A DNA stretch of 64,000 nt, from NCBI GenBank assembly GCA_035700525.1, contig DASSON010000080.1:16041-80040 (forward strand), written 5' to 3'. The DNA comes from Burkholderiales bacterium (GTDB lineage: Bacteria; Pseudomonadota; Gammaproteobacteria; Burkholderiales; JBDZVW01). Position numbers and translations under genes: made by a program. Numbering within the stretch: position 1 is the first letter of the stretch; every line of letters begins with the position of its first letter. Below the pieces are notes generated by a model that saw only the letters and a program-made list of their open reading frames with translations, searched no databases and was not told the origin of the DNA. Positions 463-58,467 of the stretch are shown here, in pieces.

Positions 463-1700
463 CGGTCCACCTCGCCGAAAACGATGTCCTGCGTGCTGAT
501 GATCGCGACCACGTCAGCGATCATGTGCCCATGCACCATTTCGTCGAGTGACGCCAGATGCACGAATCCCGGCGCACGCAGCTTCAGCCGGTACGGCTTG
601 TTGGCGCCGTCCGAAATCAGGTAGACGCCGAATTCTCCCTTCGGCGCCTCGACCGCCGCGTAGGCCTCGCCTTCCGGCACGTGCATGCCTTCGGTGAAGA
701 GCTTGAAATGGTGAATCAGCTCTTCCATGTTCTGCTTCATCTTCATGCGCGACGGCGGCGTCACCTTGTGGTTGTCCACCATCACCGGTCCGCGATTGCT
801 GCGCAGCCAGTCGATGCATTGGCGCACGATGCGGTTGGCCTGGCGCATTTCCTCGATGCGCACCAGATAGCGGTCGTAGCAGTCGCCGTTGACGCCAACC
901 GGGATGTCGAATTCCATCCGGTCATAAACCTCGTACGGCTGCTTCTTGCGCAGATCCCATTCGACCCCCGAGCCGCGCAGCATCGGCCCGGTGAATCCGA
1001 GCGCCTTTGCGCGCTCCGGCGATACGACACCGATATCGACGGTGCGCTGCTTCCAGATGCGGTTGTCGGTCAGCAGCGTCTCGTAATCATCGACCAGCTT
1101 CGGAAAGCGCTGCGTGAAATCCTCGATGAAGTCGAGCAGTGATCCCTGGCGCGCGCTGTTCAGCTTGCGCAACGCGGCACGCGACGCGTCGTACTGCGGC
1201 ATGTGATCCGGCAGGTCGCGATAGACGCCGCCCGGGCGGTAATACGCGGCATGCAGTCGCGCGCCCGACACCGCCTCGTAACAGTCCATCAGGTCCTCAC
1301 GCTCGCGGAAGCAATACAGGAACACCGTCATCGCACCAATGTCGAGCGCATGCGCGCCCAGCCACAGCAGGTGATTCAGAATGCGCGTGATCTCGTCGAA
1401 CATGACGCGGATGTATTGCGCGCGGATCGGAATCTCGATCTGCAGCAGCTTCTCGATCGCCATCACGTACGCGTGCTCGTTGCACATCATCGACACGTAG
1501 TCGAGGCGGTCCATGTACGGCACCGACTGCAGGAAGGTCTTGTTCTCCGCCAGCTTCTCGGTCGCGCGGTGCAGCAGTCCGATATGCGGGTCGGCACGCT
1601 GGATCACTTCGCCATCCAGCTCCAGTACCAGCCGCAACACCCCGTGCGCCGCCGGATGCTGCGGCCCGAAGTTCATCGTGTAGTTGCGAATTTCAGCCAT
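459..1700 (-). CDS. nuoD: NADH-quinone oxidoreductase subunit D
   Basis: ORF 459..1754. Start trimmed to the ATG at 1700, giving [31 protein letters not shown], the canonical NuoD N-terminus. Full-length 49-kDa-subunit-like sequence. Confidence 0.95.
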
Positions 1701-3363: not shown

Positions 3364-3448
3364 TGGTGCCGACGGCGAGACTCGAACTCGCACGACTTTC
3401 GCCACCGCCCCCTCAAGACGGCGTGTCTACCAATTCCACCACGTCGGC
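3364..3448 (-). tRNA. tRNA-Leu, anticodon GAG
   Basis: Reverse complement reads GCCGACGTGGTGGAATTGGTAGACACGCCGTCTTGAGGGGGCGGTGGCGAAAGTCGTGCGAGTTCGAGTCTCGCCGTCGGCACCA. Hand-folded: acceptor GCCGACG/CGTCGGC, 3-bp D stem GTG/CAC, anticodon stem CCGTC/GGCGG with loop TTGAGGG, long variable arm, T arm GCGAG-TTCGAGT-CTCGC, encoded CCA. Confidence 0.85.
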
Positions 3449-3459
3449 GCCTGAATCCG

Positions 3460-3538
3460 GTGAGGAGTAAGGAGTAAGGTGTAAGGAGTAAAACCGCCCC
3501 GAAATCAACCCCTCACTCCTTACCCCTCACGCCTCACG
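3460..3538. repeat. Heptamer-armed palindromic element, copy 1 (short variant without the GC core)
   Basis: 3460-3487 = GTGAGGA GTAAGGA GTAAGGT GTAAGGA. 3511-3538 = CCTCACT CCTTACC CCTCACG CCTCACG. The arms pair block for block. It fills the spacer between the secG stop (3541) and the tRNA-Leu 5' end (3448). Confidence 0.85.
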
Positions 3539-37297: not shown

Positions 37298-37402
37298 GTG
37301 AGGAGTAAGGTGTGAGGTGTGAGGAGTAAGGGGCTTGAAGTTTGCGGCGCGCTCGGCGCGCAGCGCTACCAACTCCTCACTCCTTACCCCTCACTCCTCA
37401 CG
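37298..37402. repeat. Heptamer-armed palindromic element, copy 2
   Basis: 37298-37332 = GTGAGGA GTAAGGT GTGAGGT GTGAGGA GTAAGGG. Core 37333-37374 contains AAGTTTGCGGCGCGCTCGGCGCGC. 37375-37402 = CCTCACT CCTTACC CCTCACT CCTCACG. Lies 1 nt from the folP ATG and 7 nt from the ftsH stop. Confidence 0.9.
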
Positions 37403-47956: not shown

Positions 47957-48388
47957 GTGACTTATACCTCCGAACTGAAGAATATCGGCCTCAAGGCGAC
48001 GCTGCCACGGCTGCGTATTCTGGAGCTGTTCGAAAAGAGCGAAGAACGGCATCTGGGCGCCGAAGACGTCTACAAACTGTTGCTCAAGGAAGGCACCGAT
48101 ACCGGACTGGCAACCGTGTATCGCGTGCTGACCCAGTTTGAACAGGCGGGTCTGCTGGTGCGCCACCATTTCGAAGGCGGCCGGGCGGTATTCGAACTCA
48201 ATCGCGGCGATCATCATGATCACCTGGTTTGCCTGCAATGCGGCCACGTCGAAGAGTTTTTTGACGAAACCATCGAAAAGCAGCAAACCACGATCGCGAA
48301 AGATCGCGGCTTTACCATCCACGATCATTCACTCTATCTTTACGCCGATTGCACCAAGGTGAACTGTCCGTTTCGGCACCAGGGATAG
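47957..48388 (+). CDS. fur: Ferric uptake regulator
   Basis: 143 aa with a GTG start. RLRILELF...[15 protein letters not shown] (wHTH), [11 protein letters not shown], and a C-terminal CxxxxC. Confidence 0.9.
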
Positions 48389-48391
48389 GGC

Positions 48392-48488
48392 GTGAGGAGT
48401 GAGGCGTCAGGGGTGAGGGGTGAATAATGCGGCGCGCCAGGCGCGCCGGAAACGTCGACTCCTCACTCCTCACCCCTCACTCCTAACA
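48392..48488. repeat. Heptamer-armed palindromic element, copy 3
   Basis: 48392-48426 = GTGAGGA GTGAGGC GTCAGGG GTGAGGG GTGAATA. Core ATGCGGCGCGCCAGGCGCGCCGGAAACGTCGACT. 48461-48488 = CCTCACT CCTCACC CCTCACT CCTAACA. Starts 3 nt after the fur stop and overlaps the recN 3' end. Confidence 0.9.
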
Positions 48489-50139: not shown

Positions 50140-50229
50140 GTGAGGAGTGAGGAGTCAGGTGTGAGGCGTTAAAGTTTCCGGCGCGCTCGGCGCGCCGCAT
50201 TTTCTACTCCTCACTCCTCACACCTCACG
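50140..50229. repeat. Heptamer-armed palindromic element, copy 4
   Basis: 50140-50174 = GTGAGGA GTGAGGA GTCAGGT GTGAGGC GTTAAAG. Core TTTCCGGCGCGCTCGGCGCGCCGCATTTTCTACT. 50209-50229 = CCTCACT CCTCACA CCTCACG. Lies 9 nt from the recN ATG (50130) and 3 nt from the nadK stop (50233). Confidence 0.9.
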
Positions 50230-56401: not shown

Positions 56402-57517
56402 ATGGCCAAACGCGACTACTACGAAATTCTCGGCGTCAATCGCGACGCATCGGAAGATGCGATCCGCAAGGCATACCGCAAGCTGGCGATGAAGTATCAC
56501 CCGGACCGCAATCCGGACAATCCGAAAGCCGAGGAACACTTCAAGGAAGCGAAGGAAGCGTACGAAGTCCTGACCGATCCCAACAAGCGTGTGGCCTACG
56601 ACCAGTATGGTCATGCCGGGGTCGATCCGTCCGCTGCAGCAGGCGCCGGCGCCGGTTTCGGCAGTTTCGCCGAAGCCTTCGGCGACATCTTCGGCGACAT
56701 CTTCGGCAGCGGGCGCGGGCGCTCGAACGTCTACCGCGGCGCCGACCTGCGCTACAATCTCGAGATCTCGCTCGAAGACGCCGCGCGCGGCACCGAAACC
56801 AAGATCCGCATCCCGACGATGGCCGAATGCGCGACGTGCCACGGCAGCGGCGCGCGCCCCGGCACCTCGCCCAGCACGTGCCCCACCTGCGGTGGCCACG
56901 GCCAGGTCCGCATGCAGCAGGGCTTCTTCTCGATTCAGCAGACGTGTCCGAAGTGCCACGGCAGCGGTCGCGTCGTCACCAGCCCGTGCGGCGACTGCCA
57001 CGGCGCCGGACGCATCAAGCAGCACAAGACGCTGTCGGTGCGCATCCCGTCGGGCGTCGATGACGGCGACCGCATCCGGCTCTCCGGTGAAGGCGAGGCC
57101 GGTGTCAACGGCGGCCCGGCGGGCGACCTCTACGTCGTCATCCATATCACGCAGCATGCGGTGTTCACGCGCGATCACAACGACCTGCATTGCGAAATGC
57201 CGATCAGCATCACGACGGCAGCGCTCGGCGGCGAAATCGACATTCCGACGCTCGACAGTTCGGCCAAGATCAAGATTCCGGCGGAAACCCAGACCGGCAA
57301 GATATTCCGGCTGCGCGGCAAGGGCATCAAGGGCATCCGCTCCAGCAGCCGCGGCGATCTGTTGTGCCACGTCGTGGTTGAAACGCCAATCAACCTCACC
57401 GCGCGCCAGCGCGAACTGCTGCTCGAACTGGAGCAGATCAGCCACAGCGACGAAGGCAAGCACACCCCCCGCGCCAAATCATGGATGGACAAGGTAAAAG
57501 AATTTTTTGAACCCTAA
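56402..57517 (+). CDS. dnaJ: Molecular chaperone DnaJ
   Basis: 371 aa. J domain with HPD, a Gly/Phe region, and four CxxCxGxG zinc motifs ([32 protein letters not shown]). Confidence 0.97.
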
Positions 57518-57776
57518 AAATTCTTTACTTGCGGCGGAGGCTAACATGCGTAGCGTGTTAAGCCGCGCAGCGGCGGCCGGAGCCACAAGTCCCGGAATTC
57601 TGAACCCTAAAAAATTCTTTGCTTGCGGCGGAGGCTAACGTTTGCAACGCAAACGTTAAGCGCCTGTGGCGCGGGCCGGAGCCACAAGCCCCCGAGAATT
57701 CTTCGAACCTTGAAGAATTTCTTGACCTTGTGGCGCAGGCCAAGCTGCGCAGCAGGTTAAGCCCGTAGCGGCAGCC
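57500..57776 (+). repeat. Tandem array of about 95-100 nt structured repeats (two good units plus one degenerate) starting inside the dnaJ 3' end
   Basis: Block 57508-57545 is nearly identical to 57601-57639 (one indel, one substitution). GGCCGGAGCCACAAG occurs at 57575-57589 and 57674-57688. A unit-specific hairpin lies between the blocks. Third, degenerate unit at about 57712-57776. Confidence 0.8.
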
Positions 57777-57840
57777 TTTTCGGGGCGGCGATAAAAGCGT
57801 AGCGTGTAAATCGGGCCGCAACGGGGCTGGAGAAACGGCA

Positions 57841-58467
57841 ATGTCATGGTACGCGGACCATGTGTTTCCGCATCTGATGGACTGGACAATGCGCACCCCG
57901 CGCGTTCGCACGGAGCGCACCGCTGCCCTGCTTCCGGCATCTGGTCACGTACTCGAGATCGGTTTCGGCACCGGCCTCAATCTGCCGTGCTATCCGCGTG
58001 CGGTGACGCGGCTCACCGCGCTCGAACCCGCGACATTGCTGGAGTCGCGGGTCGCGCGGCGTATTGCGGACGCCGCGATGCCGGTGGAGCTGGTACGGCG
58101 TGGCGCCGAAACGCTGCCGTTCGAAAACGGCCGCTTCGATTGCGTGGTCAGCACGTTCACGCTGTGCACCATAGCCGATGCGCGCGCCGCGCTGTGTGAA
58201 ATCCGGCGCGTGCTGAAACCGGACGGGCGGTTCATATTTCTCGAACACGGCCGCAGCGACGATGCGCGGACGGCGCGCTGGCAGGACCGTCTCAACCCGA
58301 TCCAGCGCGTCGTCGGCTGCGGCTGCAATCTCAATCGCCGGATCGACCTTCTGATCAGCGCCGGTGGTCTCGGCATCCGGCAGCTCGACCGTTACCTGCT
58401 GCAGGGCGTGCCGCGCGTCGGCGGCGAACTCTATCGTGGCGTTGCCGTTCCGGCAGACGCCGCCTGA
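57841..58467 (+). CDS. Class I SAM-dependent methyltransferase
   Basis: 208 aa with motif I VLEIGFGTGLN and the Methyltransf_11-like pattern (RVLKPDGRFIFLEH). Confidence 0.75.
   Translation: MSWYADHVFPHLMDWTMRTPRVRTERTAALLPASGHVLEIGFGTGLNLPCYPRAVTRLTALEPATLLESRVARRIADAAMPVELVRRGAETLPFENGRFDCVVSTFTLCTIADARAALCEIRRVLKPDGRFIFLEHGRSDDARTARWQDRLNPIQRVVGCGCNLNRRIDLLISAGGLGIRQLDRYLLQGVPRVGGELYRGVAVPADAA

Follow-up and report, generated by a model that had tools for sequence, protein, structure and literature searches.

The 323-nt spacer (57518-57840) that separates dnaJ from a class I methyltransferase gene in a Burkholderiales bacterium contains four units of a previously uncatalogued small folded family, which we call X. 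The spacer lies in a 64,000-nt stretch of contig DASSON010000080.1 (assembly GCA_035700525.1), hereafter the window. X is probably, though by no means surely, a small non-autonomous mobile element of Betaproteobacteria, of the single-strand type, that captures the tails of genes. It occupies many unrelated sites, varies in presence and in copy number among relatives, has rewritten the C-termini of proteins, and is accompanied by displaced, silent gene tails and tRNA halves. A preliminary description of the spacer, made from its sequence alone, had proposed small RNAs, a compound terminator or another repeat family, and the last of these proposals was right: a pattern scan and a covariance model both place the unit in a widespread, structure-conserved family. 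What that description missed is that dnaJ codons are part of the unit, that the downstream copies are displaced gene tails, and that the whole behaves as mobile DNA.

A whole unit is ~94-105 nt long. In the dnaJ array it begins with CAAG and a copy of the last dnaJ codons and a stop codon, continues with their reverse complement, the two forming a hairpin (P0), and ends with a conserved core of 55-70 nt. The core is a three-way junction of the form CTTGCGGCG-N-AGGCTAAC-hpA-GTTAA-hpB-GGCCG-N-AGCCA, in which hpA and hpB are hairpins. In the consensus, stem P1 carries a fixed C.A mismatch and leads through a symmetric 3x3 loop, GNA/GNA, to stem P2, GGCU/GGCC, with its U.G pair; hpA is flanked by AAC...GUU and hpB comes after two A residues. 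Both element ends, CAAG on the 5' side and GCC on the 3' side, pair with one and the same internal sequence, CTTG-C-GGC. Drawn as a circle, the unit becomes one continuous helix in which P2, the loop, P1 and P0 follow one another and whose other end is capped by hpA and hpB. A P0 of at least seven pairs is found in 76 of 94 units, compared with 35 of 293 control CTTG sites, and among those 76 units the CAAG of P0 is directly preceded by GA in 63 and by the CA of a preceding ...GCCA in seven.

Two of the four units in the window are intact, one is degenerate and one is partial (Table 1). In unit 1, the 5' arm of P0 (57490-57507) is CAAG plus the dnaJ codons for VKEF, the loop is TGAACCCT (57508-57515), and the 3' arm, AAAAATTCTTTACTTG (57516-57531), is the complement of the dnaJ codons and ends in the CTTG that opens core X1; the dnaJ stop codon TAA (57515-57517) straddles the boundary between loop and 3' arm. 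Because the 5' arm includes CAAG and dnaJ codons, the repeat starts at the Asp-Lys codons GAC AAG (57488-57493), with its CAAG at 57490-57493, and not at 57500 as first described. Cores X1 and X2 are 62-67 nt long and fold as three-way junctions. X1 has CTTG(C)GGC/GCC(A)CAAG as P1, then a GGA/GGA 3x3 loop and GGCU/GGCC as P2, with hairpins AACATGC-GTA-GCGTGTT (hpA) and GCCGC-GCA-GCGGC (hpB); the element proper stops at GCCA (57585), and the CAAG at 57586-57589 is the opening of unit 2. X2 has the same junction sequences, and its hairpins, AACGTTTGC-AAC-GCAAACGTT (hpA) and GCGCC-TGT-GGCGC (hpB), are unlike those of X1: the stem sequences differ wholly between the two units while the pairing is kept. 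This change, likened at the outset to covariation, is real and is borne out family-wide on 90 distinct copies. The segment between X1 and X2 (57590-57621) is a damaged dnaJ-tail copy with its complement.

The tail of unit 3, GAATTCTTCGAACCTTGA (57696-57713), reads EFFEP followed by a stop codon and differs from the working GAATTTTTTGAACCCTAA by silent changes alone; in its P0, the 3' arm, GAAGAATTTCTTGAC (57712-57726), is still complementary to a full older tail, CAAG-GTCAAGAAATTCTTC. Core X3 retains CTTGTGGCGCAGGC, hpA and GTTAAGCC, its 3' strand having decayed. The degenerate third unit of the preliminary description is present, but the total is four, the partial fourth core spanning the 3' half of hpA, hpB and the 3' strand and reaching the Shine-Dalgarno sequence of the next gene. 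That sequence, GGAG (57829-57832), comes from the GNA-loop region (..GGCCGGAG..) of this last truncated core and stands 8 nt ahead of the methyltransferase ATG (57841). The arrangement ..GGCCGGAG-N7-ATG recurs in two close relatives, L080 and L081, where the GGAG of the methyltransferase gene likewise derives from a truncated last core.

The shared blocks, hairpins and long-range pairing first noted all hold, at the positions first given. CTTGCGGCGGAGGCTAAC has two exact occurrences in the 64 kb, at 57528 and 57622 (0.06 expected), GGCCGGAGCCACAAG lies at 57575 and 57674 with a near-complement at 57727-57741, and TGAACCCTAAAAA lies at 57508 and 57601, all three counts being far above chance; the hairpins AAAGAATTTTT/AAAAATTCTTT, around the dnaJ stop codon, and TAACGTTTGC/GCAAACGTTA were confirmed, as was the pairing of GCCACAAG with CTTGTGGC. 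The spacer folds better than shuffled sequence (z = -3.9). Tandem Repeats Finder reported no tandem array in the spacer, the units being too divergent, and its sole match (57319-57337) is inside dnaJ. An identical DnaJ is encoded on seven metagenome contigs with hrcA-grpE-dnaK-dnaJ synteny, and the spacer is unchanged in the four of these that extend through it (L001-L004).

Table 1. Features of the dnaJ-methyltransferase spacer and its flanks (window coordinates).
Feature	Position	Strand	Basis and remarks
dnaJ coding sequence	56402..57517	+	371 aa; open reading frame list and translation; the final 28 nt are also the left part of unit 1
GACAAG, codons Asp-Lys, family left junction motif GA^CAAG	57488..57493	+	Same motif in dnaJ, glmS and smpB contexts
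Hairpin P0 of unit 1	57490..57531	+	Inverted repeat I5, folds; equivalents covary with dnaJ codons in other species
Core X1, three-way junction	57528..57589	+	Covariance model 68.4 bits, E = 8e-18; fold
Unit 2 tail remnant and P0 3' arm, TCCCG-GAATTCTGAACCCTAA-AAAATTCTTTG	57590..57621	+	Direct repeats D2, D3, D5; alignment with relatives
Core X2	57622..57688	+	Covariance model 69.6 bits, E = 3e-18; fold
Unit 3 displaced tail and P0	57689..57726	+	Read from sequence; orthologous to distal unit of L080/L081
Core X3, degenerate	57727..57776	+	Covariance model 17.2 bits, E = 0.014, match spans 57727-57797; aligns with intact L080/L081 core
Partial fourth core, AAAGCGTAGCGTGTAAATCGGGCCGCAACGGGGCTGGAG	57794..57832	+	Fourth member of direct-repeat family D1; matches X1 hpA
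Class I methyltransferase gene, 3' neighbour, outside the element	57841..58467	+	Open reading frame, translation; Pfam labels on identical contigs

How far does the family extend? When one genome of each species was scanned for the exact pattern, 72 stretches were obtained, 68 of them with genuine cores; the other four (L009, L027, L066 and L069) are chance matches in which the 3' half of the core is missing. A metagenome scan for a gene-independent form, X-full, with the structure CAAGACGC-hairpin-GCTT-CTTGCGGCG...GGCCGNAGCCA, gave 23 loci; this form is found at tRNA, argB, rlmD and other sites. In total, about 90 loci carry the core in many Betaproteobacteria. The 68 genuine stretches are nearly all annotated as coming from this group, for example from Gallionellaceae, Rhodocyclaceae, Casimicrobiaceae, Burkholderiales, Thiobacillus and Hydrogenophilus, and some carriers are labelled just as gammaproteobacterial, proteobacterial or Pseudomonadota metagenome-assembled genomes (MAGs). 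One contig labelled as an Ignavibacteria MAG (L024) has a typical glmS-associated copy, its glmS resembles those of the betaproteobacterial loci, and the contig may be mis-binned. The core matched no family in Rfam: on the 64-kb window, Rfam 15 at its gathering threshold gave a single match, a tRNA at 3367-3448, the best E-values in the spacer region at a permissive threshold were 0.75-3.5, far below threshold, and on 18 related loci just tRNA, rRNA and signal recognition particle (SRP) RNA were matched, none of them on cores. The core was likewise not matched by blastn in plasmid and phage collections, and searching the literature by sequence and by context turned up no account of the element.

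A covariance model built from 61 cores gave three matches in the 64-kb window, all in the dnaJ spacer, any further matches there being weak and not credible (at most 16.2 bits, E from 0.03 upwards), and 95 copies across the window and the 68 genuine loci. Among the 90 distinct copies, 90.9% of cells are paired, compared with 26-36% when the partners are slid; 19 of 25 pairs have changed on both sides, and none of 500 shuffles reached the observed values. The first variable pair of hpA illustrates this, being U-A in 30 copies, G-C in 20, A-U in 18 and C-G in 16. Fitting the alignment to the model favours the structure, but the slid controls and a raw MAFFT alignment nonetheless agree. No further copy was found elsewhere in the 64 kb, but homologous cores exist in many relatives, and their hairpins are conserved.

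Could this lineage simply have duplicated the dnaJ terminator region in tandem, at this one place, as the fallback of the preliminary description had it? The units do stand head-to-tail, each with dnaJ-tail sequence, and the window offers no further copy. However, the same core is present at other genes in many betaproteobacterial families, which already refutes this explanation, and what separates units 1 and 2 in hpA and hpB is the replacement of whole hairpins, not drift. There is also no terminator of the T-run type to duplicate in the scanned region: between 57300 and 58000, on both strands, there are 0 sites with a hairpin plus T-run, and the cores end in ..GCCACAAG with no T-run. We regard a local duplication as extremely improbable. 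The same absence speaks against a compound terminator, as does the occurrence of the core upstream of tRNA genes and between overlapping genes. A promoter and terminator scan of the region found nothing.

One core serves more than ten different targets. The element is found 0-21 nt 3' of the stop codon of a co-oriented gene, which is smpB at 12 loci, glmS at 10, dnaJ at nine at least, and in single cases argB, ftsZ, an acyl-CoA ligase gene and others. It also lies at the end of rlmD, just upstream of intact tRNA-Ser(UGA), tRNA-Ser(GGA), tRNA-Phe and tRNA-Leu(CAA) genes, 3' of 5S rRNA, and next to SRP RNA genes, including copies divergent from them. The target sites are of the type (T/G)GA^(C/A)A(A/G), with X in a single orientation directly 3' of the GA. 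The right boundary is fixed at ...GCCA, and the left boundary is the CAAG that pairs in P0 with the core-opening CTTG, 15-120 nt upstream of the core and after GGA or TGA. In dnaJ, glmS and smpB contexts, this CAAG belongs to the gene's own GAC AAG, 24, 36 and 66-75 nt before the stop codon, respectively.

The junctions can be read most directly at the 3' end of rlmD, where the filled allele has the form ...GTGTTTGA^CAAGACGC...GCCA^AAAAGG... and the empty allele (L108) reads GTGTTTGAGAAGCCATGAAACGC. The filled-allele RlmD ends in VFDKTLA, read from the element, whereas most homologues end in VFEKx. At another locus (L085) two elements abut directly, as ...ACCA^CAAGACGC.... Further insertions follow ..TTGA, ..CTGA and ..CTCA in anticodon loops and GGTTCGA in a T-loop-like sequence. 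At tRNA sites, a diverged 5' half that runs to ..TGA is followed by X, by 10-14 nt of tRNA from beyond the anticodon, by a spacer and then by the intact tRNA. Neither terminal inverted repeats nor a target duplication was found at the rlmD, argB and tRNA junctions. All-against-all clustering of 529 open reading frames (ORFs) from the loci gave no conserved neighbouring protein, just the upstream host genes and housekeeping neighbours.

A recurrent site is the loop of a conserved hairpin, TGACCTACTT...GTGA^X^AAGTAGGTCA. This context was seen in L086, L087, L089, L090, L100-L104, L106, L107, L008, L031 and L062; the copies in L008 and L062 are downstream of 5S rRNA, and a terminator-like hairpin precedes the element in several metagenome loci. 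The outer arms TGACCTACTT and AAGTAGGTCA may belong to a target hairpin, to a reduced fragment of 5S-like sequence or to X itself, as its outer layer. Elsewhere (L094, L036, L054, L010 and L068) the element follows ..GTGA and is flanked by runs of the heptamers CGTGATT/CGTGACT, which in L010 and L068 adjoin SRP RNA genes. The window has heptamer arrays of its own (AGGAGTA, GTGAGGT, ACTCCTC, AGGGGTG and GTGAGGA; 3463-3491, 37298-37324, 37372-37401, 48387-48423, 48458-48484 and 50140-50166), presumably the heptamer family mentioned in the preliminary description. At L034, a parA-like gene (MAVIAVFNQKGGVGKTT...) starts ~130 nt past a glmS-associated core, as at some integrative-island edges.

Close relatives show the element varying in presence and number. 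The dnaJ loci of L080 and L081 encode proteins 96% identical to that of the window and have the same downstream gene; L080 has two units in a 174-nt spacer and L081 three in a 269-nt spacer, compared with four in 323 nt in the window. All three share an orthologous distal unit, intact in L080 and L081 and degenerate (X3) in the window, and the window has an extra 53-nt piece of its own that contains the 39-nt partial unit (57794-57832). In L082 and L083, with dnaJ of ~84% identity, the spacer is 68 nt and has neither the element nor a long tail complement, from which it follows that P0 owes its 3' arm to the element and that this arm is no native terminator of dnaJ. In L084 (2014-2050), dnaJ is followed by just a relic, GCGGACCTTGCGGTGAACGCC, which joins the complement of the first tail codons to the first core bases and suggests an old, decayed insertion.

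At dnaJ, glmS and smpB, a second copy of the gene tail stands after the ...GCCA-CAAG of the core. The displaced glmS tails read PRNLAKSVTVE and a stop codon, and at seven loci they have 47 synonymous and 0 non-synonymous differences from the working tail. Such a pattern is impossible for a decaying duplicate, and therefore the tails either diverged as working gene ends in different lineages or are periodically reused through excision. In L051, the middle smpB tail (...KDRDWQREQQRLLRQKS and stop) resembles the SmpB of another lineage, and the outer tail matches the working one.

An alternative is that the core is a host cis-acting RNA, a 3'-UTR (untranslated region) stabiliser, a processing signal or a 3'-derived small RNA, inherited vertically at dnaJ, smpB and glmS and spread by ordinary recombination, with the arrays arising by slippage. 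X is always co-oriented with the upstream gene and starts within ~20 nt of its stop codon, the stop codon is in or beside the P0 loop, covariation is kept in orthologous copies, and the sense strand has a U.G pair that never varies as well as 112 G.A cells, most of them in tandem, where the other strand would have C.T or T.C. Yet the element is missing from close relatives that have the same genes, and copies stand in broken tRNA copies, between overlapping genes, where the C-terminus has been rewritten, and divergent from SRP RNA genes. Silent displaced and foreign tails, moreover, require transfer at the level of DNA, and the lack of an Rfam match also counts against a host RNA. The hairpin loops are mostly of three bases (84, compared with 59 tetraloops), and 46 of the three-base loops are GNA, not RNA-typical tetraloops; such loops are no less typical of stable DNA mini-hairpins than of RNA. 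A purely host-level RNA is therefore quite improbable. Maintenance of structure is, however, also expected from a host RNA function, and an RNA role, such as protection of the 3' end of dnaJ mRNA, may coexist with mobility.

How might a mobile X move and acquire gene tails? An enzyme would act in trans on the folded single strand, and CTTG-C-GGC would align both ends for excision or circle formation, as in HUH-type rolling-circle or peel-and-paste elements; that the chemistry of X is itself HUH-like is possible but on the unlikely side. The left boundary may shift to an upstream GA^CAAG and so capture a gene tail, and the tail-bearing unit may then enter the same GA^CAAG of an orthologous gene, supplying an in-frame tail and pushing the resident tail downstream. 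Such re-entry would explain the silent 'spare' tails after each core, and also the mirror pattern at tRNA genes, with displaced 5' half, X and intact tRNA. The gene-proximal junction may be where arrays grow and shrink, whether through a new insertion at the regenerated GA^CAAG or through recombination of one unit with another. The array is probably also a 3'-end structure, because it is transcribed together with dnaJ, and its last remnant would serve as the ribosome-binding site of the next gene; both roles are likely by-products.

The closest described behaviour is the one-ended transposition of IS801 and IS91, although we claim no membership of that family for X. IS801/IS91 make use of GAAC, GGAC, CAAG and CGAC tetranucleotides, with an essential right end and a variable left end; one-ended transposition captures pieces of upstream genes, beginning at such a tetranucleotide, and miniature fragments of the right end are moved in trans (PMC3189936). 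Like these HUH Y2 elements, X has CAAG as a boundary tetranucleotide, a constant core, gene tails included in the unit and a left boundary that may shift upstream, and both lack inverted repeats and target duplications. Unlike in IS91/IS801, the captured piece of X is paired with its own complement in P0, X would re-enter the orthologous gene in frame, it is much smaller, its core is a three-way junction, and no transposase gene was found in the loci. X is not known to resemble the ori-end sequences of IS91/ISCR. IS608 and ISDra2 insert in a strand- and orientation-specific manner 3' of a short sequence, and have end hairpins and internal bases that pair with the cleavage sites. Palindrome-associated transposable elements (PATEs) of the IS200/IS605 type are reminiscent of X, which has no inverted repeats or duplication, has hairpins near its ends, lies in one orientation and pairs internal bases with its ends. 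The left flank of X, however, is constant just as (T/G)GA, weaker than a fixed 4-5-mer, and, unlike IS200/IS605 elements and repetitive extragenic palindromic (REP) sequences with their REP-associated tyrosine transposases (RAYTs), X is low-copy, with no Y1 transposase, TnpB or RAYT found near any copy. No full-length tnpA/tnpB relative with matching ends was seen in ~0.65 Mb of loci. To our knowledge, tail capture has not been described for IS200/IS605, PATEs or REP elements.

Other small repeats are further removed. REP sequences and the bacterial interspersed mosaic elements (BIMEs) built from them are high-copy and often arranged as inverted pairs, unlike X, which occupies a single spacer of the 64-kb window and forms direct arrays, and unlike a classical miniature inverted-repeat transposable element (MITE), X has neither terminal inverted repeats nor a target-site duplication of fixed length. 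The neisserial dRS3/RS arrays and Correia elements are small betaproteobacterial repeats located after genes, co-transcribed with them and implicated in recombination, and they have inverted-repeat ends, TA or dRS3 targets and high copy numbers; X has no sequence or structural similarity to them. At the other extreme are cis-mobilizable elements (CIMEs) and tycheposon remnants, in which an element-borne gene end keeps the target intact, the displaced end lies on the far side, arrays form by accretion, and the targets are tRNA genes, smpB and glmS. X resembles such integrase islands and CIMEs in that complete displaced glmS, smpB and dnaJ tails with silent differences stand after its cores, and differs in being ~100 nt long, in having no integrase found nearby, and in using one core for many targets that share just GA^CAAG or GA^AAA.

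Could the core instead be the folded single-strand site of a tyrosine recombinase, either integron attC-like or Xer-exploiting, with the units as mostly 'empty cassettes' and one-unit circles integrating at GACAAG? An attC site folds into a hairpin with paired boxes, an unpaired spacer, a mismatch and a variable terminal structure, and the circular unit has paired boxes (GGCC/GGCU and GCC-A-CAAG/CTTG-C-GGC), an unpaired 3x3 spacer between them, a fixed A.C mismatch at the junction and a terminal P0. The CAAG that follows a core is part of the next unit, just as TTRRRY is in cassette arrays, the arrays have one orientation, and GGCTAAC and GTTAAGC resemble the R boxes RYYYAAC and GTTRRRY. One smpB array (L047) even has an ORF-bearing insert of 700 nt. 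However, an attC site has RYYYAAC and GTTRRRY at the outer ends of an imperfect palindrome of 57-141 nt, with its crossover at G^TT, whereas the similar boxes of X are internal, 11-20 nt apart and flanking just hpA, and its boundaries are GA^CAAG and GCCA^. A 3-nt spacer is short for the core site of a tyrosine recombinase, genes are almost never inside units, which carry gene tails with L047 as the sole exception, the array starts inside dnaJ, and neither an integrase gene (intI) nor attI was found near the copies. We consider an attC-like origin rather unlikely. The L047 insert itself (530-1226, minus strand) is an A+T-rich piece of ~700 nt with a predicted membrane ORF of ~200 aa between two units of the array, followed by a partial smpB tail and an intact core, and is the sole cargo-like case that we saw.

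Several observations weigh against X being a mobile element of the kind we favour. No transposase or recombinase is encoded near any copy, in the 64-kb window or in the 8-kb loci, and the apparent copy number is low, with a single locus in the 64 kb and, by exact pattern, one or two in each genome. At rlmD, more than the element separates the filled allele from the empty one: it has AAAAGGAAAATATAAA, 16 extra bases, in place of the GAAGCC of the empty allele. The difference between L081 and L080, which lacks the gene-proximal unit, can be read as a deletion by recombination between tails and not as an insertion. Structure kept by compensatory change in orthologous copies could mean a host-level function, and there is a modest strand asymmetry, with 47 G.U cells compared with 26 A.C, besides the invariant U.G pair, and a sense strand that is stabler than the antisense strand in 46 copies compared with 39 (P = 0.03), also a modest difference. 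Finally, no known insertion chemistry accounts for the tail complement in P0; element-level selection for P0 and template-switch copying are both guesses. There is a small chance that the core is the recognition or alignment structure of an undescribed single-strand transposition or recombination system, or a self-cleaving, self-ligating, circularising nucleic acid. Such a system would move ~100-nt units between lineages, systematically swapping the 3' tails of the essential genes dnaJ, glmS and smpB and, at tRNA genes, the 5' halves, while leaving all of them active; bringing along the gene piece that it displaces, the element would be 'harmless by design'.

A number of other readings were discarded. 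The small ORFs of the spacer (43-49 aa) were rejected as coding sequences, since hpA and hpB change freely and the ORFs are not conserved. The core is not tRNA-like or tmRNA-like, ARAGORN finding just the genuine tRNAs beside it. Translational bypass between two CAAGs was dismissed, tail 1 being complete with its own stop codon and the later tails lying in different frames. The sole 'viral' match (L079, 794-830) is a chance one, inside a 667-aa ORF of a 2.3-kb contig resembling an RNA-virus replicase, and lacks the 3' half of the core. A composite element at L008, suggested by two opposed matches 2 kb apart, was abandoned, the ORFs between them being lnt, a gene for a GIY-YIG protein and glyQ. 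Diversity-generating retroelements (DGRs), retrons, group I and II introns, Tn7 ends and DNA-uptake sequences were considered and dropped, their defining sequence features being absent.

If X is what we propose, environmental Betaproteobacteria, including iron oxidisers, Rhodocyclaceae, Casimicrobiaceae and Burkholderiales, would harbour a widespread family of very small mobile elements that has gone unrecorded. For annotation, it explains the 'extra' partial tRNA genes and the doubled gene ends beside dnaJ, smpB and glmS. The three-way junction, with both ends paired to one internal sequence, provides a testable handle on the enzyme or chemistry. Such elements would have solved the problem of insertion into essential, highly conserved genes by carrying a replacement gene end, and the silent spare tails would then be a readable record of past horizontal transfers. 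In its hosts, the element would rewrite C-termini, as in RlmD, donate ribosome-binding sites, and shape the 3' ends of transcripts of the heat-shock and tmRNA systems.

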